Notes: generated from the sequence alone by a model not told the origin. DNA of 64,000 nt from Streptosporangiaceae bacterium (GCA_050698755.1 JBOHCK010000001.1:140-64139); one strand, 5' to 3'; shown: positions 2,236-34,979, counted from the stretch's first letter. Translations and numbers: made by a program.

Positions 2236-4605
2236 TCATTCGCCGAGCTGGGCGATGGCCGCGTCCCTGATGTACCGCCGGATCGCCAGATCCTCGATCC
2301 GATCCAGCCGGCGGAGCAGATCCCGGAGTTCATTCAGGAATGCCGAACGCCGTTTGCAGAGGTCCTCGCCTGGCTCGAAGAGTCCCCGATTCCTCGCTAG
2401 CTGCAGGGCCGTGGCGAACAGCAGCACCGAGACCGACTCCGAACTGCGCAGCCGCCCCTGGGCCACGTACTGATGGCCCAGCCCCAGCGCCCGCTTGACC
2501 ACCTCCGCCTCATCGGCCTGCTCGCCGACCGCCAGCGCGTCATCGCTGGCCAGGACGTCGGCGACCAGCCGGTAGGCCTGGACGAAGGGCCGCACGATGA
2601 CCTGGGACACCAGCGGGCGCATCTCCGCCAGCAAGGCGTCCGCCTCGTCCGGGCCCGACCTGAGCCGTTCCTCCCACGCCGGATCATGCCGGTCCATCTC
2701 CTGGTGTACGCCACGGCGGAACTCGTCACGGTCCTTGAAGTAGAACTCGAACTTCAGCAGGTCACGGAGCCAGGCGATCTCGGCCCAGAAGGCGCCGACC
2801 GGGTCGGTGCTGTCGTGGTTGGCCCGGAGCACGGCCAGCTCGCACAGGGCCGTGTCGAGCATGAAGTGGATTACCGAGTTCCGGTAGAAGGTGGCGGCCA
2901 GCTGGTGGTCAGGCCCGATCTGCCAGACCGGCTCGCGCCCGTCCGCGGTGACGGTGACGAGCCCGCCCGCGACCAGCGCGTCCAGCGTCGCCCGGACGGG
3001 TTCGGCGGCGGACAGCGCCCGCGCGCTCGCCGTCCTCGGGATCCCGCGGTGCTCGAGGTAGTCGAGCCCGTCGGCCAGCCCGAGCCGGATCTGCCCGAAC
3101 GTCAGCGCGGTTCCGTGCATGGCCAGCAGGATCGTGGTGACCAGGGCGGTGGCCGTGACCGGCATGCCCTGGTTGATCCGCCAGGCCACCTCGAACGCCG
3201 TCTTCTGCAGCGCCAGCCGGCGAGCCGCTCCGGTTTCCGGGTTGGTCGCCGGCTCGCCAGATGGCATTCCCAGGAACGAACTCAGCAGGACCGGCTCGCC
3301 GAAGCGCACGTAGACCTTGCCGTAGTGGCGGGCGCCCTGCGCCTTGATGAAGCCGTACAGCCAGCCGAAGCCCTCCGGCTTCTTCTGCGCCCCGCGCGCG
3401 TAGTCGGCGTACTCGGCGATCTCGTGCAGCTGGTCGAAGGTGATCGAGACCGGCAGCAGCGCGATGTCGTCGACCCGGCCCTGCAGGTAGGCGTCGGCGG
3501 CGTAGGACAGCAGGCCCAGCCGCGGCGGGAGCATCTTCCCGGTGCGCGACCGGGTGCCCTCGATCGACCAGCTGAGGTTGAACCGCTTCTCCAGGACGTA
3601 GCCCACGTACTCCCGCAGCACGTACTTGTAGAGCGGGTCGTCTTGCGTGGAGCGCCTGATGAAGATGACGCCCGCCCGCCGCATGATGGCCCCCATCGGG
3701 CCGAACGCCATATTGATGCCCCCGAAGACGTGCGCGGGCGGCAGGTGATGCTCCTGGATCGCGGCGGTCAGCACGAGGTTGTCCAGGTTCGACCGGTGCG
3801 ACCACAGCAGGATCCCCGGGTGGCGCTGCATCGCCGCGCGGAGCCGCTCGACCTGGGCCTCGTCGTAGTCGATCTGCGGGTCGAAGCCTCGCTGGAAGAT
3901 CAGCCGCCCGACGGTGGGGATGACGTCGATGAGCCGGCGGCTCCACCCCGCGGCGAGTTCCTCGAGAATCTCGCCCGCCTCCTCCAGCGAAGGCGGCGCG
4001 CCGTCCGGGTCGCGCTGTACCCCTTCTAGCCCCTCGCGGAACCGGCGCGAGGCGAGGATCTCCTCCTTGACCAGGCTGGGCGTCTTGTACCGCGGGCCGC
4101 GCAGCCGGTACTCCGCCCGGTCGAGCGCGAGCGTGGCCCGCCGGGCCACGTAGCCCCCGAAGTCGTCCGGGTCTTCCCCGCCGGTGGCCTGCGCCCAGCG
4201 CGCGCGCAGCGAGCCGATCGTGGCGGGCTCGCCGGCGAGCACCACGGCCCGGCCGGGGTGGCGGGCCAGGATCCGCTGCTGCTGCCGTTCGTTCGGGCGG
4301 TACGGGTCGCGGCCCGGCATCATGTCGGCCAGCCGGGCCGCGCGCCGGCCCGAGTGCTCCTCGGGCAGCCAGGCGACCCGGACCGGCACCAAGGCGGTGT
4401 CGTCGGCCCGGTCCAGGAGCCCGGCGGGCGGGCGCGCTCCCGGGCTGCCCGCAGGCGGCAGGCTGACCACGGCCTGAACCAACCCGCCGGCCGCGGCCAC
4501 GTGCTTACGGATGAGCCGCTCTTCCGTCGGCGTGGCCGCCTGGATCAGCACCACCGCTCCCGGGTGCTGCGCCAGGAGTTCGGCCGGCCCTCCCGGCCCG
4601 CTCAC
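2236..4605 (-). CDS. plsB: glycerol-3-phosphate acyltransferase (PlsB type)
   Basis: 789 aa. Acyltransferase H(X)4D motif in WSHRSNLDNLVL, then GGINMAFGP and IEGTRSRTGK blocks. GTG start overlaps the upstream stop (GTGA at 4602-4605). Confidence 0.85.
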   Translation of the reverse strand: MSGPGGPAELLAQHPGAVVLIQAATPTEERLIRKHVAAAGGLVQAVVSLPPAGSPGARPPAGLLDRADDTALVPVRVAWLPEEHSGRRAARLADMMPGRDPYRPNERQQQRILARHPGRAVVLAGEPATIGSLRARWAQATGGEDPDDFGGYVARRATLALDRAEYRLRGPRYKTPSLVKEEILASRRFREGLEGVQRDPDGAPPSLEEAGEILEELAAGWSRRLIDVIPTVGRLIFQRGFDPQIDYDEAQVERLRAAMQRHPGILLWSHRSNLDNLVLTAAIQEHHLPPAHVFGGINMAFGPMGAIMRRAGVIFIRRSTQDDPLYKYVLREYVGYVLEKRFNLSWSIEGTRSRTGKMLPPRLGLLSYAADAYLQGRVDDIALLPVSITFDQLHEIAEYADYARGAQKKPEGFGWLYGFIKAQGARHYGKVYVRFGEPVLLSSFLGMPSGEPATNPETGAARRLALQKTAFEVAWRINQGMPVTATALVTTILLAMHGTALTFGQIRLGLADGLDYLEHRGIPRTASARALSAAEPVRATLDALVAGGLVTVTADGREPVWQIGPDHQLAATFYRNSVIHFMLDTALCELAVLRANHDSTDPVGAFWAEIAWLRDLLKFEFYFKDRDEFRRGVHQEMDRHDPAWEERLRSGPDEADALLAEMRPLVSQVIVRPFVQAYRLVADVLASDDALAVGEQADEAEVVKRALGLGHQYVAQGRLRSSESVSVLLFATALQLARNRGLFEPGEDLCKRRSAFLNELRDLLRRLDRIEDLAIRRYIRDAAIAQLGE

Positions 4606-6100: not shown

Positions 6101-7597
6101 TCAGCCCTCCGTCCCCTCCGGTGCCGAATGCCGCGGCCGTCCGAGGTCGACTACCTCGTCGAGGCCGAGTTGCAGGGCCTTCTCGAGCTGGTCGCTGTCG
6201 GTGAACGACGCGGTGTCGTAGCGGACGGTCAGCGTGCAGATGCCCGCCCGGGACATGAGCACCGCCATCATGGCCACCCGGGGCATCGGGCCCATCCCGT
6301 ACTGCCGGTCGATCCTGGCCCCGGCCAGGAACGTCTCCTGCCAGTACCCGGGCACGTTGCTGGCCTGGATGTCGGGCGGGGTGATCCTGTTGGTGACCGA
6401 CTCGAGTGCCGCGTCGGGGAGCAGGGCCAGCACCGGGGCGACCCGGTCGAGCACGCCGATCGCCGACTCGCCCCGCCGCGCGATCACCTGCTCGCGGACC
6501 AGCCTGATCCGCTCGGCCGGATCGGGTTCGCCGACGGGCGCGGCGATCGTGACGCCCGCGAACCTGTTCCCCGCCGCCGGGTCGTCCGCGGTGCGCAGGC
6601 TGACGGGCAGCGCCAGCGGCAGCTCGTCGACCGGCAGGCCCAGGGCCTCGTGGTACCGGCCGAGGCCGCCGGACAGGGCGGCCAGGTACGCGTCGTTGAC
6701 CGAGCCGCCGACGGTCTTGGCGGCCGCGCGCAGGTCGGCCAGGGGTACCTCCAGGACGTGCGTGCGGGTCACCAGGCTGCGCCGGCGCAGCAGCGGCGAC
6801 TGCGGGGCCGGCTGCGGGCCGAGCACGCGGCGCGCCGAGCCAGCGAAGCCGATCGCCTCCGCGACCGTGGGCCCCGGCGCCCCGAGCACGCGGTCGGCGG
6901 CGCGCGCCGCGCCGCCGAGCAGCCTCCACCCCGCCGAGAAAGTCGCCTCGGGCAGCCGGCGCAGGCCGGCGCGCAGCAGGTCGTTGCCGGTCACGTCGCG
7001 CGGTATGGGCACCGGCGCCAGCGGGCGCGGCCCGCTTTCCCGCTCGGTGTCGTAGACCTGCTCGAACAGGGCGATCCCGCCGAGCCCGTCGGTGATCGCG
7101 TGGCTGTACTTGCTGAGCAGCGCGCTCCGGTCCCCCTCCAGGCCCTCGACGTACACCGCCTCCCACAGCGGGCGCGAGGTGTCAAGCGGCGACTGGAGCG
7201 TGACCTCGGCCAGGTCGAGCAGCTGGCGCAGCGTGCCGGGGCCAGGCAGCCCGACCCACCGCACGTGATAGTCCAGGTCGAAGTCGGGATCGACGACCCA
7301 CCGCGGCGCGGTGACCGGGAGGGGCGGGACCACCACCTTCTGCCGCATCCTGATGACCACCCGGCTGGCCCGGTCCAGCGCCTCGCGCAGCTGGTTCCAG
7401 TCGGCCGGGCGATCGAGGATCTCCACGCCGAGGAACGCCGATCGCGTCGCCGGGTACGCCTCGCCCCGGTGCAGCAGGTAATCCAGCGGGCTGAGCTCGT
7501 CGGACGGTCCGGCGGGCGGTGGCGACGAGTCGGCCATGATGCCCCTCAGGGTCGCGGATGATACATCCGCCATTATCGTCTCAAGCAGGGAGCTCAA
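6101..7597 (-). CDS. wax ester synthase/diacylglycerol acyltransferase (WS/DGAT) family
   Basis: 498-aa ORF. N-terminal LSPLDYLL..., active-site block KYSHAITDGLGG (variant of HHxxxDG), C-terminal NVPG. Start uncertain (7597, 7573 or 7537). Stop lies 5 nt before the plsC start. Confidence 0.8.
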   Translation of the reverse strand: MSSLLETIMADVSSATLRGIMADSSPPPAGPSDELSPLDYLLHRGEAYPATRSAFLGVEILDRPADWNQLREALDRASRVVIRMRQKVVVPPLPVTAPRWVVDPDFDLDYHVRWVGLPGPGTLRQLLDLAEVTLQSPLDTSRPLWEAVYVEGLEGDRSALLSKYSHAITDGLGGIALFEQVYDTERESGPRPLAPVPIPRDVTGNDLLRAGLRRLPEATFSAGWRLLGGAARAADRVLGAPGPTVAEAIGFAGSARRVLGPQPAPQSPLLRRRSLVTRTHVLEVPLADLRAAAKTVGGSVNDAYLAALSGGLGRYHEALGLPVDELPLALPVSLRTADDPAAGNRFAGVTIAAPVGEPDPAERIRLVREQVIARRGESAIGVLDRVAPVLALLPDAALESVTNRITPPDIQASNVPGYWQETFLAGARIDRQYGMGPMPRVAMMAVLMSRAGICTLTVRYDTASFTDSDQLEKALQLGLDEVVDLGRPRHSAPEGTEG

Positions 7598-7611
7598 CAG
7601 GTGGAGGCGGG

Positions 7612-8376
7612 ATGAGCGACGAGGTACTGGTCGAGCGCCGCGGCGCGGTGCAGGTCATCACCATCAACCGGCCGGAGGCCCGCAACGCCCTGAACGGTGC
7701 GGTGGCGGCCGGCATCAGGGACGCGGCCGATGAGCTTGACGGTGATGACGACCTGCGGGTCGGGGTGCTCACCGGAGCGGGCGGGACCTTCTCCTCCGGG
7801 ATGGACCTCAAGGCCTTCCTGAAGGGGGAGATGCCCTCCTTCCCCGGCCGCGGCCTGTGCGGCATCACCCAGACCCCGCCGCGCAAGCCGCTCGTCGGCG
7901 CGGCGGAGGGCTGGGCGCTGGCCGGCGGCTTCGAGCTCCTCCTGGCCTGCGACCTGGTCGTGGCCGGAGCCTCGGCGCGGTTCGGCGTTCCCGAGGTCAC
8001 GCGCGCGCTGGTCGCGGGCGCCGGAGGGGCGCTGGTGCTGGCCCAGCGGGTGCCGCGGGCGCTGGCGCTCGAGCTGCTGCTGACCGGAGACCCGATCGAC
8101 GCCGGGCGGGCCGCCGCGATCGGCCTGGTCAACCGGGTCGTGGACGACGGCCTGGCGCTGGCGGAGGCGATCGGACTCGCCGAGCGCATCGCCGTCAACG
8201 GTCCCCTGGCGGTGATGGCGACCAAGCAGATCGCGCTGTCCGCGGGCGACTGGGCCGCCGGGCAGCGGTGGGACGAGGCAGCCAGGGTGATGGGGCCGGT
8301 GTTCGCCTCGCAGGACGCCAGGGAGGGGGCCAGGGCGTTCGCCGAGCGGCGCCCCCCGGTCTGGCAGGGGCGCTGA
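7612..8376 (+). CDS. echA: enoyl-CoA hydratase (crotonase family)
   Basis: ATG at 7612 is preceded by GGAGG. MSDEVLVERRGAVQVITINRPEARNAL, LTGAGGTFSSGMDL and AEGWALAGGFELLLACD are typical crotonase blocks. Confidence 0.85.
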   Translation: MSDEVLVERRGAVQVITINRPEARNALNGAVAAGIRDAADELDGDDDLRVGVLTGAGGTFSSGMDLKAFLKGEMPSFPGRGLCGITQTPPRKPLVGAAEGWALAGGFELLLACDLVVAGASARFGVPEVTRALVAGAGGALVLAQRVPRALALELLLTGDPIDAGRAAAIGLVNRVVDDGLALAEAIGLAERIAVNGPLAVMATKQIALSAGDWAAGQRWDEAARVMGPVFASQDAREGARAFAERRPPVWQGR

Positions 8377-11721: not shown

Positions 11722-14280
11722 TCACCGGTTGCGCCACCGCGGCGCGCGCTGCTCGCTGAGGGCCTTCATCCCCTCCGCCGCGTCGTCGGTCAGCATCGCC
11801 TGTTCGAGCGCGTCCCCGGTGCTGTTCACCGCCGCGACGGTATCGGCGATGCCCCGGGTGTCGGCCATGATCTGCAGCGCCGAGCGCACCGCGCTCGGGG
11901 ATCCGGCCAGGATCTCGCCGGCCAGTTCCCGCGCTCCGGCGAGCGCGGCGCCCGCCTCGGTGACCCGGTTGACCAGGCCCCACCGGTGCGCCTCGGCCGC
12001 GCCCATCCGCCGCCCGGTCACGATCAGCTCGGTCGCGATCTTCTCCGGTACCGCGCGCGGCAGCCGGACCAGCCCGCCGGCGCCCGGCACCTGGCCGGCC
12101 CGGACCTCGCCCAGCCTGAACGAGGCGGCGGCGTCGGCGACCACCAGGTGGCACGCGAGCGCGATCTCGCACCCGGCGCCTTCGGCCAGGCCGTTCACCG
12201 CGGCGATCACCGGTTTGGGCATCGATGCGCGGCTGGTCAGGCCGGCCTGCCCGTTCAGCGGCACCCAGGCCCGCTGTCCGGTGGCCGCGTAGGCCAGATC
12301 CTGGCCCGCGCAGAACGACTGCTCCCCGGCCCCGGTCAGCGTCGCGCCGGTCAGCGTCGCGCCGGTCAGCGTCGCGCCGGTCAGCGTCGCGCCGGTCAGC
12401 GTCGCACCGGTCAGCGTCGCGCCGGTCAGGACCGCGCCGGTCAGGATCGCGACCCACAGGTCGGGATCGGCGAAGTACGCGTCGAAGATCTCGTCGAGCT
12501 CGTCGTTGGCCGGCGGGTGCAGGGCGTTGCGCACCTCCGGGCGGCTGATCGTGACCTCGAGCAGGTGGCCGTCGCGGCCGACCGTGACGTGCTCGTACTC
12601 CTCGCGCAGCCCGGACCGGCGGGCGGGGAACAGGCTGTCCATCCGCGCCCGGGTGCGGGTGACGTGATTACCGGCGGCGAAGGCCCGCGCGTACACGGCG
12701 GCGCCGAACGGGTCGCCCTCGCCGAGCAGGTCGAGCAGCTCCTCATCGCCGGAGGGAACCGTGGCGACGAAACGCCGGCCACTGCCGTCCAGGTGGCCGC
12801 TGCCCAGGTGGCCGCTGCCCAGGTGGCCGCTGCCCAGGTGGCCGCTGCCCAGGTGGCCGCTGCCGTCCAGGCGGCCGATGACGATGCCGCGGCGGTGGCC
12901 GTCCCGGCCGTGCCTGACGGTGAACGTCTCGATGACCGCCGGCCCGCGCGGGCGGCGGTCGACCTCCACGCGCGGCCGCTCGTCCAGGCTCGCCTGCAGG
13001 GCACCGCTGCGCCCCGGCTGCCACGGCGTCGGCCGGGTGGTGTAGACGCCCGCCGAGTACTTGCCCATGATGCCGCCGTTGGCGCCGACGAAGCCGAAGC
13101 TCCCCGGAGCCTGCCGCGCCCGGTGCAGGGTCTCGACGATGGCGTGCATCGAGTAGTTGTTCCCCGCCCCGCCGAAGTACGGCAGGCCGCCCGTCAGCGT
13201 GAGCCCCCGCGGGTCATCCGCGGCCAGGCCGAACGCGTCGCAGATGTTGAACACCGGGATCGGGAAGCAGCTGTACAAGTCGATGGTGGCGACCTCGGCC
13301 ATGGTGATGCCCGCCAGCTCGAGCGCCAGCTCGCTGGCCCGGGCCGCCGCGGGGCTGCGAGACAGGTCGGGCCGGGTCAACAGCAGCTGCTCGCGCGCGT
13401 CCGCGTGCCCGGCCAGGAACACCCACCGTTCCTCGGGCACGCCGAGCCGCCGGGCGGCCGCGATCGAGGCGAGCACGACCGCCGCGCCCTGGTTGACCTG
13501 ATCGCGGGCCACCAGGTAGCGCGGATAAGGCTCGGCGATGAGGCGGTTAGCCTCGCTCAACGTCACCAGCTCGGCGGCGTCCCTCCTGACCGGCGAGGCG
13601 GCGAACGGGTTGGCCGCCGCGACCTCGGTGAACGGGGCGAACAAGGCGCCCATCCGGGCCGCGTACGCCTCCCGGCTCAGCCCCTCCCGGGCGCGCCGGG
13701 CGTTCTCGAGCAGCGCGTACTGGCTGGGCGCGTCGGTCAGCCCGTGCGCGGCCAGGTGCCGTGAGCCGAGCCCGGCTAGCCCGTAGCCCCGGTCCTCGAG
13801 GCTGCCGCCCACCGTCTCGGTGAAGTCGGGGCGGTCGGCGGCGCCGGCGAAGTGACGCGCGGTCGAGATCGCCTCGGACCCGACGATCAGCGCGACCTGC
13901 GTCTGGCCGGCCGCGATCGACCCGGCCAGCTCGGTGACCAGGTGCTGCGGAGCCTGGCCCCCGCTGACCTCCAGGATGGCCCGGCCGGGCCGGGCTCCGA
14001 TCCGGGCGGCGACGGCTCGCGGGTAGTTGTCGGCGCGGCCCAGGGGAGCCCGGGCGAACGGCGTGGTCGTCTCGAACTGCCGTACCCCGGCGATCGTGTC
14101 CACCGCGGCCGTCAAGGCGGCCAGGTCGGTGCCGCAGTCGGCCAGGGCCGCGTGCGCGGCCTTCGCCGCGAGCCCGACCGCGGACAGCCGCGCATAGTCG
14201 GCCGCGCCCAGCCGGTCGATGGTCTGGCCCCCGCCGATCAGGACGGGAGTCCGCGGGTCAAGCCCGGCCCAGTCGCTCAT
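11722..14280 (-). CDS. thiolase-fold domain fused to a crotonase/enoyl-CoA hydratase domain, with two internal pentapeptide repeat tracts
   Basis: 852 aa. The N-terminal ~440 aa is thiolase-like (DLYSCFPIP..., LTGGLPYFGGAGNNYS). The C-terminal ~300 aa is crotonase (ISRPEVRNAL, FCAGQDL, VNGLAEGAGCEIALACH). (GSGHL)x5 lies in the linker and (LTGAx)x8 in the hydratase domain. Confidence 0.75.
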   Translation of the reverse strand: MSDWAGLDPRTPVLIGGGQTIDRLGAADYARLSAVGLAAKAAHAALADCGTDLAALTAAVDTIAGVRQFETTTPFARAPLGRADNYPRAVAARIGARPGRAILEVSGGQAPQHLVTELAGSIAAGQTQVALIVGSEAISTARHFAGAADRPDFTETVGGSLEDRGYGLAGLGSRHLAAHGLTDAPSQYALLENARRAREGLSREAYAARMGALFAPFTEVAAANPFAASPVRRDAAELVTLSEANRLIAEPYPRYLVARDQVNQGAAVVLASIAAARRLGVPEERWVFLAGHADAREQLLLTRPDLSRSPAAARASELALELAGITMAEVATIDLYSCFPIPVFNICDAFGLAADDPRGLTLTGGLPYFGGAGNNYSMHAIVETLHRARQAPGSFGFVGANGGIMGKYSAGVYTTRPTPWQPGRSGALQASLDERPRVEVDRRPRGPAVIETFTVRHGRDGHRRGIVIGRLDGSGHLGSGHLGSGHLGSGHLGSGHLDGSGRRFVATVPSGDEELLDLLGEGDPFGAAVYARAFAAGNHVTRTRARMDSLFPARRSGLREEYEHVTVGRDGHLLEVTISRPEVRNALHPPANDELDEIFDAYFADPDLWVAILTGAVLTGATLTGATLTGATLTGATLTGATLTGATLTGAGEQSFCAGQDLAYAATGQRAWVPLNGQAGLTSRASMPKPVIAAVNGLAEGAGCEIALACHLVVADAAASFRLGEVRAGQVPGAGGLVRLPRAVPEKIATELIVTGRRMGAAEAHRWGLVNRVTEAGAALAGARELAGEILAGSPSAVRSALQIMADTRGIADTVAAVNSTGDALEQAMLTDDAAEGMKALSEQRAPRWRNR
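12332..12451 (-). repeat. 15-bp in-frame tandem repeat, about 8 copies (ccggtcagcgtcgcg)
   Basis: Six near-identical units plus two diverged units. Encodes LTGAV/LTGAT x8 ending in LTGAG. One unit carries a single G-to-A change. Confidence 0.95.
12789..12863 (-). repeat. 15-bp in-frame tandem repeat, 5 copies (ccaggtggccgctgc)
   Basis: Five perfect copies encoding (GSGHL)x5 between the thiolase-like and hydratase domains. Confidence 0.95.
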
Positions 14281-23876: not shown

Positions 23877-25363
23877 TGCAGCGGTAGCGTGGCGCAGACC
23901 TCAGCCGAACGCCCGGCCACGCGCACCTCGATCCAGGCCGTGGAGCGAGCCAGCCCCGGCCTCAGCTTCATCCGCAGCCAGTACTCGCCGTCAGAGAACT
24001 GCACGCCGTCCACCCCGGCGACGTGCCACCGCCCGCCGCTGTCGCGCACCCACACCGACACCGGCAGGTTGTCCACGATGGGCGGGCCGGTCCCGTCGTC
24101 CTCCGGCAGGCCTCTCACCAGCACGTGCAGGATGGTCTGGCCGTCGGTGTTGTGCAGGCCGAGCAGGGCCAGCCTCATCCCGTCGAACTCGGGGAGGGCG
24201 ACGGCCAGGGGGGCGTGGCCCTCGCGGGCGGGCGCCATGTCCGGCTTCCTGCGCTGGTAGTGCGAGAGCAGGCTGAGCCACCGCTCGGGCAGCTCGGGCC
24301 CGGGCGGCGCAGTCAGGCCGTGCCCGGTGACGCTCAGGCTGGCGCACAGCGCGGCGAGCTGGCCGGGCACCTGGCTATGCGGCGGCAGGACCTCGGCGGC
24401 CTCCAGCGCCGCCACGACGTCGCCGAGTCCCGCGGTCATGGCGTGGAGCGGCGCCCGGGCGTACGAGGTCCGCCGCAGGTCGGGCCCGTGCTCGCTGACC
24501 GCCATGAGCAGCCGGTCCGCGAACACGCTGAGCATCTGCTCGCCGAGGGACAGATCGGTCGGCGTGACCTGCGGCCCGGCGCCGTCCGGCCGAACTGGGC
24601 CCGGCTCACCCAAGGTGATGCGCACGGGCTTCTGGCCGGGCGCGGCAAGCTCCAGCCAGCGCAGGCCGTCCGGCGGGTCGGGATCCAGCCTGATCTCGCC
24701 GGCCCAGTCGGTGAAGCTGAAGTTCACCTGGTACGAGTTGCCCCGGTCGTCCGACACCGTGAACAGCCGGGGGAGAATCGGGCTCCCGAAATGCCGCCCC
24801 ATCAGCGCCTGACCGAGCGGGCTCCGGGTCCGCCAGGTGACGGTGAACCGCGCCCCGGCCGACGTGTGCGCGTAGGAGAGCAGGTTCACCTCGCCGCTGA
24901 CGTCCTCGTGGCGGAACGGGACGCTCAGCCCGAGCGGGACGTAGCAGTCCGGCCCGCCCGCGCCGACCGCGACCGCGCCCAGGCCGGCCGCGCCCGGGTC
25001 GGGCGCCCCCCACCAGGCCCGCGCGTACAGCCTGCCCCGGGTCAGCGCGGGCCTGGTCAGCAGCAGCGGACCTGGGTCCGAATGCTGCCGAACGCCGACC
25101 GCGATCGCAAAGTCGGCCAGGACGTCCTGCGCGGCCGTCACGTCGATGGCGCGTACCGCGGCCAGTGCCTGCGCCACCCGCGCCAGTCGCGGGAAGCTGG
25201 TGGCGGGGCTGTCGCCCGACCACGGCGCGCCGGAGATGAACGTCGCCCCTTCGCGGGCAGCGCGCAGCTCAGTCTCGGCCATCAGCCGCAGGAACGTCTC
25301 CGCGCGCTCGCGGTTCATATTGTCCAGTGTCGCCCCGTCCAACCACCCAGGCGTCCACTCCAA
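23858..25363 (-). CDS. hypothetical protein (MoxR/VWA operon partner 1), apparent internal duplication
   Basis: 501-aa ORF (TTG at 25363, alternative ATG at 25318). It contains two similar helical-plus-beta-rich modules. No family recognised. It starts 36 nt downstream of the CBS gene. Confidence 0.55.
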   Translation of the reverse strand: MEWTPGWLDGATLDNMNRERAETFLRLMAETELRAAREGATFISGAPWSGDSPATSFPRLARVAQALAAVRAIDVTAAQDVLADFAIAVGVRQHSDPGPLLLTRPALTRGRLYARAWWGAPDPGAAGLGAVAVGAGGPDCYVPLGLSVPFRHEDVSGEVNLLSYAHTSAGARFTVTWRTRSPLGQALMGRHFGSPILPRLFTVSDDRGNSYQVNFSFTDWAGEIRLDPDPPDGLRWLELAAPGQKPVRITLGEPGPVRPDGAGPQVTPTDLSLGEQMLSVFADRLLMAVSEHGPDLRRTSYARAPLHAMTAGLGDVVAALEAAEVLPPHSQVPGQLAALCASLSVTGHGLTAPPGPELPERWLSLLSHYQRRKPDMAPAREGHAPLAVALPEFDGMRLALLGLHNTDGQTILHVLVRGLPEDDGTGPPIVDNLPVSVWVRDSGGRWHVAGVDGVQFSDGEYWLRMKLRPGLARSTAWIEVRVAGRSAEVCATLPLQWGYPA

Positions 25364-25399
25364 ACGCCCCGCCCGTCACGCCATGAAAGTTAGCGACCT

Positions 25400-25804
25400 T
25401 CAGGCGGAGGTGGTCACCGGCTGCGGTGCCTCGGCGGAGGTCCAGACGCGGACGATGTCGCGCATGGAGAGCAGTCCGGCCACGTCGTGGCCCTCGATCA
25501 CGACCAGGTGCCGGAACCCGCCGTTGATCATCGCCGCGGCGGCCTCCTCCAGGGTCCACTCGGGCGAGGCGTACACGAGGTCTTCTGTCCGGTGCTGGGC
25601 GACGAGCTCGGCGTCAGGGTCTTCGCCCAGGGCGATCGAGTCGAGGAGGTCACGTTCGGTGAGGATGCCGATGCCCGCGTGCTCGGTGTCGATGACGACC
25701 GCGGCGCCGATGCGCCGCTTGGACATCATCTGCGCTGCCTGCCGCAGCGTGTGCGCTGGCCCGATGGTGAGCACAAGGTGGGACATGCCGTCTCGTACCT
25801 TCAC
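25400..25804 (-). CDS. CBS-pair domain protein
   Basis: 134 aa. Two CBS motifs (RRIGAAVVID...GILTERDLL and FRHLVVIEGHDVAGLLSMRDIV). Confidence 0.85.
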   Translation of the reverse strand: MKVRDGMSHLVLTIGPAHTLRQAAQMMSKRRIGAAVVIDTEHAGIGILTERDLLDSIALGEDPDAELVAQHRTEDLVYASPEWTLEEAAAAMINGGFRHLVVIEGHDVAGLLSMRDIVRVWTSAEAPQPVTTSA

Positions 25805-25873
25805 GGTTACTGCACCCCCTGGGTTCAGCTGCTTGTGAATTTGTGACAGACCACCAGCATCCGTGATATCCCC

Positions 25874-26662
25874 CTAGAGAGCAAGACCCAGGTGAGCAAG
25901 CACCTCCCCGTGCAGGTGACCGTTGGTGGAGACCGCGCTGCCGCCGTCGGGCCTGGCCTCGCCCTCCAGCGAGGTGAACTGTCCCCCCGCCTCGGTGACG
26001 ATGATCTGCAGCGCCGCCAGGTCCCACAACGACACCTCGGGCTCGGCGGCGATGTCGCAGGCGCCCTCGGCGACGAGCATGTGCGACCAGAAATCGCCGA
26101 ACGCCCGCGTCCGCCAGACCGACTTGGCCAGCCCCATGAAGTTGTCGAGCAGCCCGCGCTTCGCCCACCCGCCCAGACCCGAGTACGACATCGAGGCGTC
26201 GTCCAGCTTGGTCACCCCGGACACCCGGCAGGGCGACGCCTTGGTCAGGCTGCGCCCGGTCCACGCGCCGCCGCCCAGCGCTCCCCACCAGCGCCGGCCG
26301 AGGGCGGGCGCCGACACCACGCCGACCACCACGTCCGGCCCGTCCATGAGCCCGATCAGCGTGGCCCAGACCGGCACGCCACGGACGTAGTTCTTGGTCC
26401 CGTCGATGGGGTCGAGCACCCAGCACCGCGGTCCGTAGCCGGCCCGGCCGAATTCCTCGCCGAGCACCGCGTCGCGCGGCCGCGCCCGGCGCAGCACGTT
26501 ACGCAGCGAATCCTCGGCCGCCCGGTCGGCATCGGAGACCGGCGTGAGGTCGGGCTTGGTCTCGACCCGCAGGTCGAGCGCCCGGAACCGCCTGGTCGTG
26601 ATGTCGTCGGCGGCGTCCGCGAGGACGTGCGCGAAGCGCAGGTCGTCGTCGTAACGTGCCAC
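25874..26662 (-). CDS. hisN: histidinol-phosphatase (inositol monophosphatase family)
   Basis: 262 aa, GTG start. [28 protein letters not shown] and the WDLAAL blocks are typical of IMPase-fold actinobacterial HisN. Confidence 0.8.
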
Positions 26663-26714
26663 CCGCGAACGGTACCGCCTCGCACATCACGCTGGCCAGC
26701 CAGGACCCCGCCGG

Positions 26715-27026
26715 GTGATAATGGCCCTGATGGACTTTTCCGCCGAGGGGCTCCTCGCCGACCCGCCCGAGTTGCTGCGGCCCTTCATCCGCGATGGCCG
26801 GATCACGGCCCTCCCGGCTAAGCGCACCCGCCGCCGCCTGCTGCTTGACCAGGTGGCGCAGGCGTTCGAGCCGGGCCGCAAGTACCCGGAGAAGGCCGTC
26901 GACGAGATCCTCAAGGCGGTCGTGGACGATCACTGCACGCTGCGCAGGTACCTTGTAGATGAGGCGTTCTTGTCCAGGACGGCCGCGGGCATCTACTGGC
27001 GCGTAGGGGGCACCGTCGATGCGTAA
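26715..27026 (+). CDS. DUF2087-domain protein
   Basis: 103 aa. RITALPAKRTRRRLLLDQVAQAFEPGRKYPEKAVDEIL...DHCTLRRYLVDEAFL matches my recollection of DUF2087. Exact Met uncertain. Confidence 0.55.
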   Translation: MIMALMDFSAEGLLADPPELLRPFIRDGRITALPAKRTRRRLLLDQVAQAFEPGRKYPEKAVDEILKAVVDDHCTLRRYLVDEAFLSRTAAGIYWRVGGTVDA

Positions 27027-27281
27027 CAAACCCTTTATCCCGAACGAGCGGTGGTGCTTCCCCGAGAAGCCACCGAGTTCCCGGTTGCCGGAGCAGGACA
27101 GGCCCTGATGCTACCCCGAGCGTCCGCCGGGCGATCCCGACGACGAGGGTTGCTTCCCGGAGAGCCCGTCGCGCCGCCGCCGTCGCGCCGTCAGCCTCGA
27201 AGACCTAGCCCGCCTGCTCTAAGCCCGCTGGTCGGCCTGGCCCGCCTGCTTCAGCCGCTCGCCGACCTGGCCCCGCCTGCG

Positions 27282-28271
27282 TTACTCGGGCGCGCCCTCC
27301 CGGCTGCGCAGCACCCGGCGCAGCGAGTCAAGCCGCGCCTCCGCGTGGTGCTCGCGCGCCCACTCGTCCAGCGCGCACCCGGAGAGGTGATCGCACCCCG
27401 GCGGGCACCCGGCGGTGCCCTCGGCCAGGTCCCCGAACGCCTCGATCACCTGCTCCTCGCTCACGTGCCCCAGCCCGAACCCGCGCAGCCCCGGCGTGTC
27501 GATGAGCCACCCGTCGCCCAGTGGCAGCGCCACCACCGACGACGACGTGTGCCGGCCCCGGCCGGTGACCGCGTTCACCCTCCCCACGGTCCGGGCCGCC
27601 TCCGGGACCAGGGTGTTCACCAGCGTGGACTTGCCGACGCCGGACTGCCCGATGAGCACGCTGATCCGGCCGGTCAGCACGTTCCGCACCCGGGCCAGGG
27701 TCCGCGGCGACAGCGGTCGCCTGGTGGTCAGCATGGGCAGCCCGAGCGGGGTGTAGAACGCGCGGACCTTCCGCGGTGACGCCAGGTCGGCCTTGGTCAG
27801 CAGGAGCAGCGGGTCGATCCCCGCGTCGTAGGCCGCGACCAGGCAGCGGTCCACGAAGCGGAGCCTGGGCGGCGGCTGGGCCAGCGCGCAGACGACGACG
27901 AGCTGGTCGGCGTTGGCGACGATGATCCGCTCCAGCGGGTCCGTGTCGTCCGCCGAACGCCGCAGCACGCTGGTCCGCGGCTCCACCCGGACGATCCTGG
28001 CCAGCGACCCCTGCTCGCCCGAGGTGTCCCCGGCCAGCGCGACCCGGTCGCCCACCACGACCGAGCCCTTGCCCAGTTCGCGCGCCTTCATGGCGATGAC
28101 CAGGCGGTCGTCCGCCATGCACCCGTACCGCCCGCGGTCCACGCTGGTCACGAAGCCCTCGACGGCACTGTCGTGCGCGGGGCGCCGCCTGGTCCGCGGG
28201 CGGGAGCCCCGTCCGGGCCGGACCCGGACGTCGTCCTCGTCAAGCCGCGCGTAGCCGGGCCGCGGGCTCAG
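27282..28271 (-). CDS. rsgA: ribosome small-subunit-dependent GTPase A
   Basis: LLLLTKADL (G4), GQSGVGKSTL (G1), DTPG (G3) and a C-terminal Cys cluster. The conserved N-terminal segment (YARLDEDDVRVRPGRGSRPRT...) lies upstream of the track start at 28151. The only candidate start is CTG at 28271, overlapping the aroA stop. Confidence 0.75.
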   Translation of the reverse strand: MSPRPGYARLDEDDVRVRPGRGSRPRTRRRPAHDSAVEGFVTSVDRGRYGCMADDRLVIAMKARELGKGSVVVGDRVALAGDTSGEQGSLARIVRVEPRTSVLRRSADDTDPLERIIVANADQLVVVCALAQPPPRLRFVDRCLVAAYDAGIDPLLLLTKADLASPRKVRAFYTPLGLPMLTTRRPLSPRTLARVRNVLTGRISVLIGQSGVGKSTLVNTLVPEAARTVGRVNAVTGRGRHTSSSVVALPLGDGWLIDTPGLRGFGLGHVSEEQVIEAFGDLAEGTAGCPPGCDHLSGCALDEWAREHHAEARLDSLRRVLRSREGAPE

Positions 28272-29614
28272 GGTTTCTGTCCCAACATTGCCGTCCAGAC
28301 CTGCGAGAAAGCGGGGAACGTCTTGCCCACGGTCTCCGCGCCGGCCACCCGGAGGCCTGGGACGGCCAGGCCGAGCACGGCCGCGGCCATCACCATCCGG
28401 TGGTCGTCGTAGCTGCCGAACGGCTCGCCGCCCGCGCGCAGCGGCCGCGGGTTGATGGCCAGCCCGTCGGGCAGTTCGGTGACGTCGCCGCCGAGGGCGT
28501 TGATCTCCTTGGCCAGCGCGGCCAGCCGGTCGGTCTCGTGCCCGCGGGTGTGCGCCAGCCCGGTGAAGACTGAAGGGCCGTCGGCCAGCGCCGCCACCGC
28601 GGTCAGCACCTGTGCGAGCTCGGGGACGTCCCGCAGGTCCGCGGTGATGCCGCGGACGGCGCCCGTCCCGGACAGGGTCAGCCCCTGCTCGCCGACCTCG
28701 CCCTGCGCGCCCATCCGGGCCAGCACATCCAGGATCAGCCCGGCCGCCTGCAGGCTGTCGGTCGGCCAGCCGGGCACGGTGATCGTCCCGCCGGTAATCA
28801 GCGCCGCGGCCAGGAACGGGCCCGCGTTGGACAGGTCGGGCTCCACGGTGATGGCCCCGAGCTCGAGCCGCCCGGGCCGGACCCGCCAGGCGTCGGGGCG
28901 CGGGCCCCCCGCCGCCGATTCGGCGCTCACGTCGGCCCCCGCGGCCGCGAGCATGCGGACGGTCATCGCGATGTGCGGGGCCGAGGGCACGGGCGGGCCC
29001 TCGTGCCTGATCTCGACGCCCTCGCCGAACCGCGGCGCCGCCAGCAGCAGGCCCGAGACGAGCTGCGACGACGCCGAGGCGTCCAGGGTGACGGTGCCGC
29101 CGCGGACCGCGCCGCGCCCCTGCACGGTGAACGGGACCGCCTCGCGGCCGTCGTCGTCGATGTCCGCACCTAGCCGGCGCAGCGCCGCGAGAATCGCGCC
29201 GACCGGGCGCAGCGGCGCCCGCGCGTCCCCGGCGAACCGGACCGTGGCCCGCGTCAGCGCCGCCACCGCGGGCAGGAAGCGCATGACCGTGCCTGCGTTG
29301 CCCACGTCCACGCTGACCATCGAGCCCTCCGGCGGCTGCCCGGGGGTAACACGCCAGGTCGTTCGGCTATCAGGGTTTTGCTCTTGTCCTTCCCCAGCGA
29401 TCTGCGCGCCCAGGGCGCACAGCCCGCTGACGGCGAGCGCGGTGTCCCTGGCCTGCAGGGGGTTGGCGATCAGGGCGGGGGAGTCGCTCAGGGCCGCTAG
29501 GACCAGCGCGCGGTTGGTGATCGACTTGGACGCGGGCAGCCGGATCCGCGCGCTGACCGGGCCGGAAGCGGTCGGCGCAGTCCAGGTCAGGTCCGCCTCG
29601 TCATCCCCATGCAT
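28268..29614 (-). CDS. aroA: 3-phosphoshikimate 1-carboxyvinyltransferase (EPSP synthase)
   Basis: In-frame ATG at 29614 gives 448 aa. LPASKSITNRALVLAAL, DVGNAGTVMRFL and HRMVMAAAVLGL are EPSPS signatures. The longer ORF extension covers an intergenic repeat. Confidence 0.9.
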   Translation of the reverse strand: MHGDDEADLTWTAPTASGPVSARIRLPASKSITNRALVLAALSDSPALIANPLQARDTALAVSGLCALGAQIAGEGQEQNPDSRTTWRVTPGQPPEGSMVSVDVGNAGTVMRFLPAVAALTRATVRFAGDARAPLRPVGAILAALRRLGADIDDDGREAVPFTVQGRGAVRGGTVTLDASASSQLVSGLLLAAPRFGEGVEIRHEGPPVPSAPHIAMTVRMLAAAGADVSAESAAGGPRPDAWRVRPGRLELGAITVEPDLSNAGPFLAAALITGGTITVPGWPTDSLQAAGLILDVLARMGAQGEVGEQGLTLSGTGAVRGITADLRDVPELAQVLTAVAALADGPSVFTGLAHTRGHETDRLAALAKEINALGGDVTELPDGLAINPRPLRAGGEPFGSYDDHRMVMAAAVLGLAVPGLRVAGAETVGKTFPAFSQVWTAMLGQKP

Positions 29615-29653
29615 ACGCCTGAGCGTATCGGTGCCCGCCCCGATCCGCGCCTC

Positions 29654-29768
29654 GCGCTGGCCCTCCCAGGGTTTGGCGGACCCAGCCCGCGCCCCCGGCG
29701 CTGGCCCTCCCGGTTTGGGCGGACCCAACCGCGCCCCCGGCGCTGGCCCTCCCAGGGTTTGGCGGACC
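29654..29768. repeat. direct repeat of about 43 bp, about 2.7 copies, in the aroA/SRAP divergent intergenic region
   Basis: gcgctggccctccc(a)gg(g)tttggcggaccca(g/a)cc(c)gcgcccccg recurs at about 29654, 29698 and 29740 (periods 44 and 42). It is followed by an 8-bp inverted repeat CCTGGATT-N16-AATCCAGG (29767-29798). Confidence 0.85.
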
Positions 29769-29843
29769 TGGATTATGGTTATGAAATGCCAATCCAGGCT
29801 TAACGGGACGTGTCCGGATTCTTTCACCCTGAGGAAGAGTTTC

Positions 29844-30617
29844 ATGTGCGGTCGGTTCGTGTCGGCGCGTAAGCGCCTCGAGCTCCTCGAGGAGTTCAGC
29901 ATCGAACGGGACCGCGTACCCGACGGACCCGAATCGGAGCCTGCGCCGGACTACAACGTGGCGCCGACCAAACGGATCTTCGCGGTCATCGAACGCCCCG
30001 CCCGCGAAGACGAGCCACAGGCCCGTGAGCTGCGCGTGGTCCGCTGGGGCCTGGTTCCCTTCTGGGCCAAGGACGCCTCGGGCGGCGGCCGGCTGATCAA
30101 CGCCCGCGCCGAGACCGTGGCGACCAAGCCGGCGTTCCGCCGTGCGTTCGCCAAGCGCCGCTGCCTCATTCCTGCCGAAGGCTATTTCGAGTGGCAGCCG
30201 GTCGAGCAGGACGGCAAGACGCGCAAGCAGCCTTACTACATCTTCAGGAAGGACGGTGGTGAGCTGGCCTTCGCCGGGATCTACGATCTCTGGCGAGACG
30301 AGGCACTCCCTGACGATCACGAGCGCGCGTGGCTGTGGACGGCCGCGATCATCACGACCCAGGCGTCCGACGACGTCGGCCAGATTCACGATCGCATGCC
30401 CATGACCATCGCGCCGCAGGCCTGGGCCGACTGGCTGGATCCGGCGACCAGCGACCTTGGCCAGCTACAAGCGACGATGGTGCCTGCCATGTCCGGCGGC
30501 CTGACGTCATTCCCCGTATCTATGGCTGTCAACTCAGTGCGGAACAACGGACCCGAGCTCATAAGGCCGCTGCCTGATTCCGCCGAGGGGGAGCGGCCGC
30601 CCAGCGAGTTGTTCTGA
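29844..30617 (+). CDS. SOS-response-associated peptidase (SRAP/YedK, abasic-site processing protein)
   Basis: ATG at 29844 after GAGGAAG. The N-terminal MCGRF (catalytic Cys2), VVRWGLVPFWAKD and IPAEGYFEW are SRAP hallmarks. Confidence 0.9.
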   Translation: MCGRFVSARKRLELLEEFSIERDRVPDGPESEPAPDYNVAPTKRIFAVIERPAREDEPQARELRVVRWGLVPFWAKDASGGGRLINARAETVATKPAFRRAFAKRRCLIPAEGYFEWQPVEQDGKTRKQPYYIFRKDGGELAFAGIYDLWRDEALPDDHERAWLWTAAIITTQASDDVGQIHDRMPMTIAPQAWADWLDPATSDLGQLQATMVPAMSGGLTSFPVSMAVNSVRNNGPELIRPLPDSAEGERPPSELF

Positions 30618-30688
30618 GTCCGCGGCGCGGCCGCGGCTCTACCGAGCCTGGGCTGCCCATCGCACGCGGACGGGAGGCGAGGACACCA

Positions 30689-31036
30689 GTGGAACTTACC
30701 GTCGCCCGTAAGCGCCTCGAGGAGATGCGCGACGACCTTGACCGGTCGATATCGATCCTGCAGGGTGAGCGCCCGGCGCCGACGGCCGGGTCGGGGTACC
30801 CGCAGGACCAGGCCGACGCGGGTTCCAGCCTGTCCGAAGCCGACCGCACCGAGGCGGTCCTGCACTCGGCCCGTGCCCAGCGCACCGAGGTGGAGGCCGC
30901 GCTCACCCGCATCGACGAGAACAGCTACGGCGAGTGCGTCGCCTGCGGGCATGAAATTCCCGAGGGCCGCCTCGACGCGCGCCCCGACGCGGCCCGCTGC
31001 GTCGGCTGCCAGGCCAAGTACGCCCGCCGCCGCTAG
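30689..31036 (+). CDS. DksA/TraR-family C4 zinc-finger protein
   Basis: 115 aa. C-terminal YGECVACGHEIPEGRLDARPDAARCVGCQ (CxxC-N17-CxxC). Confidence 0.8.
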   Translation: MELTVARKRLEEMRDDLDRSISILQGERPAPTAGSGYPQDQADAGSSLSEADRTEAVLHSARAQRTEVEAALTRIDENSYGECVACGHEIPEGRLDARPDAARCVGCQAKYARRR

Positions 31037-31070
31037 TCCGACGTAACGTCGCTAGTCCGGCTCAACGCCG

Positions 31071-32021
31071 CTAGTCCGGCTTACACGCCGAGATCACGAG
31101 CTGCGCGCCGAGTGACTCATCGCTGGCGGCGGCGAGTTCGGCGCGGACCAGCCGGGCCAGGCTCGCCGGGTCTTCGGCCAGCGCGTGCGTCACCATCGAC
31201 TCGGAGAACACGGTCCGCGGCCTGATCCAGTTCACCAGCAGGCCCGCCCCGCCGAACAACTCGCGCGCCTGCTCCGGTCCGTAGCACCGGGTGATCGCCC
31301 CGTCCGGCCAGGGCACCAGCACGACCTCGGCGTGCGGCAGGTCGACCAGGTGCGGCCAGTGACGCTGCCCCGCGAGCACCGCCATGCCGAGCACGAGCGA
31401 GTCCACGCACGCCAGTACCCGCCCTCCCGGGCGGAGTACCCGGGCGACGTCGGCGATCAGCGTTTCGGCGCCCAGGTGCGTGGACAGCGCCCGGTCCTCG
31501 GCGATGACGCCATCCGCGCAGTTGTCGGCCAGGAAGGACAGCCGCGAGAGGTCGGCGATCAGCGGGAAGATCCTGCCCCGCCCACCCGACCCCATTCCCC
31601 TAGGGCCCATTCCCCTAGGGCCCATTCCCCTAGGGCCCATTCCCTCAGGGCCCGTTTCCCCCGGGCCCGGCGCCGTGCCCGTCCCCCCAGTGCCGGTCGC
31701 CCCGGTGCCCGTCCCCCCGGTGCCGGTCGCCCCGGTGCCCGTCGCCGCAGTACCGGTCGCCTCAGTGCCGCCGGCCCCGATGCCGCCGACCCGGGTCCGG
31801 CTGGGCTCCAGGGCGGCCTCCAGCACGCGCAGGACGGTATGCCCACCCCGTGCGGCCAGTTCCGCGCTCGCCGCGCGCGGTCCCGAGACGTCCACCAGGA
31901 CCCGCCGTCCCGGCGGAAGCCAGGCCGCGAGCTGCGCCCGCGCCACCGCCTCGCAGAAATGCCTGTACGTAGGCGGACGTTCGGTATCCGGCCTAGTGAT
32001 CTCGTTGGCCGCAGGCTGCAC
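31071..32021 (-). CDS. class I SAM-dependent methyltransferase-like protein with an inserted repeat tract
   Basis: VLVDVSGPRA... and ARVLRPGGRVL blocks are separated by about 70 aa of GTG(A/G)T and MGPRG repeats. Start uncertain. GTG at 32021 is preferred because the ORF start at 32144 would overlap the sigH promoter. Confidence 0.55.
   Translation of the reverse strand: MQPAANEITRPDTERPPTYRHFCEAVARAQLAAWLPPGRRVLVDVSGPRAASAELAARGGHTVLRVLEAALEPSRTRVGGIGAGGTEATGTAATGTGATGTGGTGTGATGTGGTGTAPGPGETGPEGMGPRGMGPRGMGPRGMGSGGRGRIFPLIADLSRLSFLADNCADGVIAEDRALSTHLGAETLIADVARVLRPGGRVLACVDSLVLGMAVLAGQRHWPHLVDLPHAEVVLVPWPDGAITRCYGPEQARELFGGAGLLVNWIRPRTVFSESMVTHALAEDPASLARLVRAELAAASDESLGAQLVISACKPD
31591..31790 (-). 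repeat. two adjacent in-frame minisatellites (15-bp unit about x5, then 30-bp unit about x3.5)
   Basis: cccattcccctaggg occurs x3 perfectly plus 2 diverged copies (31591-31665, MGPRG repeats). gtgcccgtccccccRgtgccggtcgccccg occurs x2 near-perfectly plus diverged copies (31675-31790, GTGATGTGGT repeats). Confidence 0.9.
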
Positions 32022-32124
32022 GGGGCCCTGAGCTCCTGACTGCGCGCCTGCGCATACAGACGCGCACCTGTCAGCCTTCCCATTCAGGTGCCCTTCGTCA
32101 CCTGTTCGCGCGGACCCATCCCGT

Positions 32125-32150
32125 GGAATGACAGCCTGCATCAACGTGTT
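32125..32150 (+). promoter_or_regulatory. SigR/SigH-type autoregulatory promoter (GGAAT-N18-GTT)
   Basis: GGAAT at 32125-32129, an exact 18-nt spacer, and GTT at 32148-32150, about 10 nt upstream of an in-frame ATG (32160) of the sigma gene. Confidence 0.75.
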
Positions 32151-32159
32151 GAACGCGGC

Positions 32160-34954: not shown

Positions 34955-34979
34955 GTACGACGCAGGCGGACGGGCCGCG

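Follow-up and report, generated by a model that had tools for sequence, protein, structure and literature searches.

Coding variable-number tandem repeats (VNTRs) of bacteria consist of near-identical units of 10–100 nucleotides that lie head to tail and are gained or lost as whole units (described in Mycobacterium tuberculosis, where both in-frame structural variants and copy-number variation of tandem repeats occur, PMC12817950, and in bioRxiv 10.64898/2026.02.28.708716). In a general model of their origin, a tandem duplication flanked by microhomology seeds the repeat, which then expands (bioRxiv 10.64898/2026.02.28.708716). Phase variation by copy number of tandem repeats is known in M. 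tuberculosis, where the repeats lie in promoters (PMC12817950). Here we describe an array that belongs to this known kind, and that represents no new kind of system, in a Streptosporangiaceae bacterium, an uncultured soil actinomycete. The DNA analysed is a stretch of 64,000 nucleotides (GCA_050698755.1 JBOHCK010000001.1:140-64139), called the window below, with positions counted from its first letter. The array is a 15-nucleotide minisatellite, termed LTGAx for the peptide that it encodes, and is located within a gene for a fusion of a type 1 thiolase-like protein (TLP1) with a crotonase, or enoyl-coenzyme A (CoA) hydratase (ECH), domain. Like the coding VNTRs described before, it has a unit that is a multiple of three nucleotides and keeps the reading frame, and a single tandem duplication served as its seed. 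It differs from them in residing in a cytosolic enzyme of lipid metabolism, at the root of a catalytic loop, rather than in a surface or PE/PPE protein or a promoter, and in that the repeated peptide is itself a conserved motif of the protein family. Overall, we regard it as a young, length-variable, in-frame minisatellite on top of an older duplication of one unit, and it is probably neither a switch nor the mark of a dead gene.

The crotonase superfamily (PF00378) includes rat ECH (1DUB and 2DUB) and EchA1 and EchA8 of M. tuberculosis. In rat ECH the NH donors of the oxyanion hole are Ala98, which is part of loop-2 (Ala96–Lys101), and Gly141; hydrogen bonds from the CoA adenine to the carbonyls of Ala96 and Ala98 lock the loop, and its exact conformation determines the oxyanion-hole geometry (PMC13126182). 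Helix H10 of the adjacent subunit lies over the adenine pocket of the rat enzyme (PMC13126182). The domain described here has the fold of these enzymes, their (I/V)LTGAG strand-turn and F-x-A-G-x-D loop-2 motif, and the two catalytic glutamates. It differs by the presence of 35 extra residues between the strand and loop-2, by the fusion to TLP1, and by the sequence GAGCE, found in its near clade where most of the family has GGGCE. The N-terminal 540 residues superpose on TLP1 of M. smegmatis (MsTLP1), including an extra C-terminal beta-barrel domain. MsTLP1 is monomeric, lacks thiolase activity and has no function assigned to it (PMC3406046). The fusion protein differs from it by the added ECH domain and by a second array, GSGHL x5, in a hairpin of the beta-barrel.

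The LTGAx minisatellite occupies positions 12325..12451 on the minus strand and consists of eight codon units of 15 nucleotides, which encode residues 613–652 as LTGAV, six copies of LTGAT, and LTGAG. In other registers the same array spans 12332–12451, as in an earlier note on this DNA, or 12332–12444, as delimited by Tandem Repeats Finder (TRF), which reports a period of 15, 7.5 copies, 94% matches, no indels, a score of 198 and the consensus CCGGTCAGCGTCGCG. A repeat search returned eight copies in register at 15-nucleotide spacing. Translation of 12325–12447 on the minus strand gives ILTGAVLTGATLTGATLTGATLTGATLTGATLTGATLTGAG, which can be written as I-LTGAV-(LTGAT)x6-LTGAG and is followed by GEQSFCAGQDL. 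The codon units are, in order, CTGACCGGCGCGGTC, CTGACCGGCGCGACG, CTGACCGGTGCGACG, four further copies of CTGACCGGCGCGACG, and CTGACCGGGGCCGGG. A run of 74 nucleotides (12332–12405) is perfectly periodic. Relative to orthologues with a single unit, the array adds seven units and thus 35 residues. Its head-to-tail arrangement, its unit length within the range of about 10–100 nucleotides and the high identity of its units are those of a coding VNTR or minisatellite. In the window, of which about 72% is G+C, the array is far beyond chance expectation; comparably strong arrays (period of at least 9, at least three copies and a score of at least 90) number only 4 in 639 kb of orthologous loci of other actinomycetes. 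The earlier note had read this segment as about eight tandem 15-bp copies in frame within the ECH domain, reiterating the crotonase (I/V)LTGAG segment, with a unit length that preserves the frame. TRF, the repeat search and translation bear out this reading together with its coordinates and its 35 extra residues, and the frame is intact in every allele seen.

The array lies between two conserved parts of the crotonase fold. Directly downstream is the loop-2 segment GEQSFCAGQDL (12295..12327, minus strand, from translation), which aligns with 'GAGG-NFCAGMDL' and 'GAGDKSFCAGADL' of solved crotonases. The HMMER crotonase match is broken into an N-terminal part that ends at the first ILTGA and a C-terminal part that starts at the last LTGAGEQSFCAG, and thus either end of the array corresponds by homology to the one I(L/I)TGAG that other crotonases have. 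Both catalytic glutamates and the second oxyanion-hole region are in the translated segment GCEIALACHLVVADAAASFRLGEVR (12100..12174, minus strand), which aligns to 'GTELVLSCDLVVAGRSAKFGIPEVK' of 3trr. By motif alignment, the predicted catalytic pair is Glu705 (in GCE) and Glu725 (in GEV), equivalent to Glu144 and Glu164 of rat ECH; among 119 homologues E705 is invariant and E725 nearly so. The loop-2 motif F656-C-A-G-Q-D-L662 is present along with both glutamates of the hydratase pair.

The residue numbers of the rat enzyme are those published (PMC13126182, above). Aligned by the F-x-A-G-x-D-[LI] motif, Ala658, Gly659 and Gln660 would correspond to rat Ala96, Gly97 and Ala98. The correspondence is inferred from the motif. 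With this mapping, the array would repeat the end of the beta-strand and the turn into loop-2, and would stop eight residues before the oxyanion-hole NH of Gln660. The earlier note had called the repeated unit the oxyanion-hole motif; it is a reiterated strand-loop segment of crotonases, but not the oxyanion hole itself, since Gln660 would lie eight residues past the last glycine of the array. The full-length AlphaFold2 (AF2) model has a mean predicted local distance difference test score (pLDDT) of 81.5, and places strands at 610–615 (VAILTG) and 655–657 on either side of a low-confidence segment at 618–653. This segment and the one at 474–499 are the main low-confidence regions of the model; they coincide with the two arrays and both have native strands on either side. 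The active-site neighbours within the ECH domain (11722–12630) also differ in the near clade, where GGGCE is replaced by GAGCE and EVKVGL(V/A)AGAGG by EVR(A/S)GQVPGAGG.

The number of units at the site differs among relatives. Single-unit spacing is found in 105 of the 119 aligned homologues, and nine have two units, which are diverged (LTGAI-LTGAG, LTGAM-LTGAG, LTGAV-LAGTG and LTGAI-LMGAG). One homologue carries three units (LTGAV-LTGAA-LTGTG), one carries five, and the window carries eight. All of the expanded forms belong to a crown clade of at least 85% protein identity in a neighbour-joining tree, and three single-unit members are also found there. Comparison of orthologues and sister strains, which the earlier note had proposed, therefore gives 1, 2, 3, 5 and 8 units within the close clade. 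Among 80 species-representative orthologues, a set of 62% identity or less with no member of the near clade, 75 have a single unit, one is a residue shorter, four are not matched by the pattern, and none is expanded. Three of 66 metagenome loci with the exact 23-nucleotide flank have two units and none has more; these loci are mostly unrelated crotonases that share WVAILTGAG, only four are from the near clade, and they include no new high-copy allele. From these sequences, the ancestral state at the site is one LTGAx unit. At the DNA level, the site starts as a duplication of GCGATCCTGACCGGC (ILTGA), which in the single-copy state is followed by GCC, and the copies are flanked by 2–3 nucleotides of GC(G) microhomology. 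The earlier note had held that a diverged insertion carried uniformly by orthologues would indicate an old, fixed feature rather than a dynamic repeat. This description suits one part of the array, in that a diverged insertion of one extra unit is old and widespread in the clade; it does not suit the young dynamic array on top of it.

A second 15-nucleotide minisatellite in the same gene, absent from the earlier note, encodes GSGHL five times (12789–12864, minus strand; residues ~473–497). TRF reports 5.1 copies that are 100% identical, and the perfectly periodic run is 76 nucleotides long. Its insertion site is the tip of a beta-hairpin that belongs to the C-terminal beta-barrel domain of TLP1, where modelled strands at 463–471 and 503–507 flank a segment with pLDDT below 50. 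The ancestral sequence of this site is GRLD(A/G)DGRRF with no insert, and 110 of 119 homologues are without one. Inserts in relatives add 6, 11, 12, 14 or 26 residues, and diverged forms of one to three units occur among relatives. The DNA records an 18-nucleotide duplication encoding RLDGSG, a change of R to H, and expansion of a 15-nucleotide HLGSG unit. Single-strand DNA folding of the LTGAx and GSGHL arrays gave z-scores of -1.07 and +1.00, respectively, no better than shuffled sequence; therefore nothing points to hairpin-driven instability, and a hairpin-driven mechanism for either array is left unsupported.

The fusion protein is 100% identical to MGH3253790.1, named 'MAG: acetyl-CoA acetyltransferase [Streptosporangiaceae bacterium]' and encoded on a contig of 64,462 nucleotides, and the window therefore derives from a metagenome-assembled genome (MAG). 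A sister MAG of the same species (GCA_974104545.1) covers positions 1722–22203 and 24984–42021 of the window at 99.58–99.91% identity, with 25 mismatches in 37.4 kb. Exactly three indels separate the two assemblies, and each consists of whole 15-nucleotide units: the sister is shorter by 45 nucleotides at LTGAx, by another 45 at GSGHL and by 15 at a third array, GMGPR, which belongs to a neighbouring gene. In the 20.4 kb that contain the fusion gene (99.6–99.8% identical) the LTGAx and GSGHL arrays are the only indels, and the missing GMGPR unit is the sole indel in 17 kb. According to the two assemblies, the LTGAx units number eight in the window and five in the sister, and the GSGHL units five and two. 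The order of variant units in the LTGAx array is the same in both MAGs (the GTC unit, ACG, the GGT marker as unit 3, ACG units, and the GGG unit), and the difference resides only in the perfect units after the GGT marker, four in the window versus one in the sister. The GSGHL unit of the sister carries a private single-nucleotide polymorphism (AGT versus AGC). Whole-unit copy differences between close genomes, a hallmark of coding VNTRs, are thus seen in these assemblies, which, read literally, imply a much higher mutation rate in the arrays than in the rest of the region. Near-identical unit DNA and whole-unit differences from the sister MAG agree with the proposal of the earlier note that the expansion is recent.

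The array also resembles pentapeptide repeat proteins (PF00805; Rfr fold), which include MfpA, Qnr, HetL and Np275/276. Residues 611–650 match the Pfam Pentapeptide model with an E-value of 4.1e-12 and 45.9 bits, above the gathering cut-off of 20.2, and the register A-T-L-T-G fits the consensus A(D/N)LXX. Searched alone against solved pentapeptide-repeat proteins, the array aligns in the register L-x-G-A-(D/N) with the designed protein beta1 (4yfo; 1.9e-23), Np275/276 (5.8e-17) and HetL (4.5e-16), and more weakly with MfpA and QnrB1. An AF2 model of residues 596–670 alone has pLDDT 72–77 over the array, in which strands of three residues recur eight times with a period of five, as in a solenoid-like ladder. 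Every one of the top Foldseek matches of this isolated segment is a pentapeptide-repeat structure; the best reaches 2.6 A across 48 columns, but all E-values are 0.38 or more. In the full-length model, however, the array residues have a pLDDT of ~25 and no secondary structure, so the fold is unsupported there. The array further differs from pentapeptide repeat proteins in that it has only eight repeats, or two coils, which lie inside another domain, in that position i-1 is Thr rather than Asp or Asn, and in its derivation from the crotonase strand-turn. We considered homology to these proteins and rejected it, as growth from a single ILTGAG by way of 2-, 3- and 5-unit intermediates rules out shared descent. 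The resemblance is real in sequence and is of convergent origin, since the intermediate forms trace the array back to the crotonase motif.

We think it likely that the in-frame VNTR is a tolerated by-product of replication slippage in a repeat-prone genome, and not a designed functional module. As the comparison of relatives shows, a 15-nucleotide tandem duplication of ILTGA occurred in the ancestor of an uncultured Streptosporangiaceae-like clade to give ILTGA-ILTGA-G, with GC(G) microhomology at its flanks as in microhomology-mediated tandem duplication. Most members of the clade kept the two-unit form, which diverged in them, and a few are without it. In the species of the window the tract was then expanded again to five to eight near-identical units; the length variation, all of it in the perfectly periodic part, has the pattern expected of slipped-strand mispairing or unequal recombination. 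In the protein, the first unit may still provide the native end of the beta-strand and the last unit the native Gly-x-Gly turn into loop-2, with the 35 extra residues extruded at the surface as a loop that could be disordered or form a small two-coil beta-solenoid. With strand end and turn native and the extra residues extruded, the hydratase is most likely still folded and at least partly active, and a stand-alone ECH gene (7558–8376), ~4 kb from the fusion gene, may cushion any cost. The same process would also account for the GSGHL array of the TLP1 part and for those in at least one further gene of the window, which would place the cause in a genome or lineage prone to 15-nucleotide in-frame arrays and not in crotonase biology.

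Several observations weigh against this explanation. Microhomology of 2–3 nucleotides of GC is trivial in DNA of 72% G+C, and slippage does not account for the predominance of a period of 15. The counts of 8 and 5 units come from assemblies rather than from reads, and the window is the longer of the two assemblies at all three arrays (by 45 nucleotides at two of them), which would also fit collapse of the repeats to a minimal path in the sister assembly. The inserted residues lie at the root of loop-2, where the tolerance of 35 extra residues is inferred. For pairs that include this lineage, the ratio of non-synonymous to synonymous substitution rates (dN/dS) is 0.43–0.72 in the ECH part versus 0.20–0.23 in the TLP1 part, and the lineage has the substitution N579S in a near-invariant NRP motif (N in 93 of 95 distant homologues); these two features leave room for relaxed constraint.

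The assembly data raise the alternative that the array exists but that its copy number, eight here and five in the sister, is an error of expansion or collapse, so that the polymorphism between the MAGs is unreal. Both sources are MAGs, and perfect runs of 74 and 76 nucleotides are enough to trouble de Bruijn assembly at small k, although ordinary 150-nucleotide reads and a k of 77 or more span them. The agreement of the two independent assemblies in the order of variant units and the private polymorphism of the sister's GSGHL unit argue against simple collapse of the window array. The diverged two- and three-unit forms in many other assemblies cannot come from collapse, and a comparable array exists in an orthologue from a cultured Actinoplanes with a complete genome. 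We therefore judge this alternative unlikely. The artefact suggested by the earlier note is ruled out for the expansion as such, because an independent assembly has the same marker unit and because diverged two- and three-unit relatives exist; it may still apply to the exact copy numbers, which rest on MAG assemblies. That the expansion crippled the ECH domain, which would now be drifting to loss while the TLP1 domain is kept, is improbable in our estimation. Besides the rates and the N579S change given above, such decay would agree with an insertion eight residues ahead of the oxyanion-hole NH and adjoining the loop-2 carbonyls that bind adenine, with the altered active-site neighbours of the near clade (GGGCE to GAGCE and KVGL to R(A/S)GQ) and with the nearby ECH paralogue. 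However, the gene has no stop, frameshift or deletion, the catalytic glutamates and F-x-A-G-x-D are intact, and the differences from the sister MAG are two synonymous and zero non-synonymous. Pairwise dN/dS values in the clade (0.20–0.32 for the TLP1 part and 0.32–0.72 for the ECH part) are below 1, the private substitutions of the lineage (7 in TLP1 and 8 in ECH) are no outlier compared with similar ratios in one- and two-unit relatives, and the two-unit form has been kept across a dS of ~0.1–0.2. From these sequence comparisons, the ECH domain of the whole clade is somewhat less constrained, with no signal of loss specific to the eight-unit lineage; the recently inactivated enzyme considered in the earlier note finds no positive evidence.

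Copy number could instead be under selection, with array length tuning activity, substrate access or oligomerisation, and with a hypermutable tract that supplies diversity to the population. Copy number differs between nearly identical genomes in which almost nothing else does, the site adjoins the CoA-binding loop, and M. tuberculosis, likewise an actinomycete, has documented phase variation by copy number, although there the repeats lie in promoters (PMC12817950). Such adaptive variation nevertheless seems very improbable to us, as the unit is in frame and provides no on/off switch, the product is a cytosolic enzyme of lipid metabolism rather than a surface or host-interaction factor, and similar arrays in unrelated loops, in a neighbouring gene and in Actinoplanes point to mutational bias over selection specific to the site. 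As a separate candidate, a phase-variable contingency locus was rejected on two grounds: the 15-nucleotide unit is inside the open reading frame (ORF) and in frame in all alleles, and the product is a TLP1 and ECH fusion rather than a surface or interaction protein, and its gene has a syntenic neighbourhood, conserved in relatives, of genes for acyl-CoA dehydrogenase, NMO and ECH. The 'contingency-type' polymorphism of the earlier note is accordingly unsupported, since an in-frame 15-nucleotide unit in a cytosolic enzyme cannot switch expression. We also give little credence to a new structural module, in which the eight units would make up the two coils of a right-handed quadrilateral beta-helix (the pentapeptide-repeat fold) standing out from the crotonase domain, with an acquired or emerging function of its own. 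The Pfam score, the matches to solved pentapeptide-repeat proteins (4yfo in particular), the eight periodic strands in the isolated-segment model and the nature of its top Foldseek matches speak for such a module. They are offset by the absence of structure in the full-length model, by the high Foldseek E-values, by the inflation of E-values that low-complexity repeats cause and by the marginal stability of a solenoid with two uncapped coils, and the five units of the sister genome imply that no fixed architecture is maintained.

The host gene (11722..14280, minus strand) was taken from the ORF listing; it encodes 852 amino acids and has a third-position G+C fraction (GC3) of 0.95. The N-terminal ~540 residues are those of a TLP1: the protein scores 745.9 bits against NCBIfam NF006105 (cut-off 683), contains TLP1_add_C (PF18313) at 4.5e-11, and in Foldseek its AF2 model matches M. 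smegmatis TLP1 (4egv) with a TMt of 0.96–0.97 and 46% identity. Both the thiolase-fold N-terminal domain and the C-terminal beta-barrel of TLP1_add_C that typify TLP1 are therefore found. The database name 'acetyl-CoA acetyltransferase' is doubtful, because MsTLP1 is reported to be without thiolase activity (PMC3406046). The C-terminal ~300 residues (~555–852) are the crotonase domain, which matches Pfam ECH_1 (PF00378) at 2.1e-46 and 158.8 bits (cut-off 27). Its best solved relatives in sequence are mycobacterial enoyl-CoA hydratases, with E-values of ~1e-40 (PDB matches down to 3.4e-40). In Foldseek the model matches the crotonases 5kjp, 3trr and 6ldz with a TMt of 0.91–0.94 at ~2.1 A and with ~38 extra alignment columns, so that membership in the superfamily is indicated by a profile above threshold and, in the model, by the fold. 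The fusion is widespread in Actinomycetes (6223 matches at E<=1e-30, with a typical length of 785–797 amino acids). The gene is convergent with a set of ECH, double acyl-CoA dehydrogenase and NMO genes, and this arrangement is kept in relatives.

Strong arrays are frequent in the window, which has five in 64 kb compared with the four in 639 kb of other actinomycete loci. In each of the five the period is a multiple of three, and in four of them it is 15 or 30. A period of 15 (or 30) is dominant among the strong arrays, as at 12332, 12789, 31591, 31675, 24973 and 27440. The earlier note had treated the LTGAx array as an oddity of one gene; it is instead one of several 15-nucleotide coding arrays in this genome. 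A methyltransferase-like gene (31071–32144, minus strand), which has no Pfam match and whose relatives are named methyltransferase, contains adjacent 15-nucleotide arrays in a linker (31591–31785) that encode GMGPR four times and TGTGA/TGTGG about six times. Within the family this linker is hypervariable: other lineages have different five-residue arrays in it, for instance ELGRA x5 and DGSRG x4. In the TLP1-ECH orthologue of Actinoplanes sp. CA-142083 (NZ_CP192076.1, cultured, complete genome) we found an independent 12-nucleotide array of 10.8 copies, (E[RS]TG)n, at 4465–4594 of its locus (L006); it occupies another loop, flanked by LLDLLTT and EPIG. Loops of this protein therefore carry in-frame arrays outside MAGs as well.

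Other repeats in the window are of different types. Nested repeats of 18, 24, 48 and 72 nucleotides at 44760–44988 are in an ORF on the plus strand (44634–45389), where they encode the Pro/Ala/Arg-rich N-terminal region (PARATPPARATPPARAAQ...PQPARAARPKPARGAQPQPEPAPRPGPAPRPEPAARPE) of a predicted membrane protein with no Pfam match. Repeats of 36/108 and 33/66 nucleotides, with TRF scores up to 280, lie at 58555–59022 in an ORF on the minus strand (57951–59438), where they overlap the C-terminal two-thirds of a putative PadR-family regulator as well as a 384-amino-acid ORF on the opposite strand. Repeats with periods that are not multiples of three are present at 29654–29768 (43 nucleotides, 2.7 copies), 27202–27280 (32 nucleotides, 2.5 copies) and 31028–31090 (19 nucleotides, 3.3 copies). 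Located at gene boundaries or close to them, these are presumably intergenic.

The arrays are the only indels between two near-identical genomes and for this reason would be useful strain markers, but they are also the least trustworthy spots of MAG assemblies. For the crotonase family, the scaffold appears to tolerate insertion between the ILTG strand and the catalytic loop-2, and units numbering 1, 2, 3, 5 and 8 provide a natural allelic series. The one unusual feature of the locus is that a motif of a catalytic domain has been turned into a consensus-like pentapeptide-repeat tract. We consider it a slim prospect that a beta-solenoid module is caught here as it arises from an enzyme motif to which it is unrelated, with the eight units folded as an Rfr-type helix of two coils next to the adenine pocket for CoA. 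If this were true, the 1-2-3-5-8 series would represent the intermediate stages through which a repeat fold emerges de novo, and copy number would tune substrate access or assembly. More generally, slippage can turn a motif unrelated to pentapeptide repeats into a tract that scores above the threshold of the Pfam 'Pentapeptide' model, which calls for caution in annotation and may offer a model for how solenoid repeats begin.

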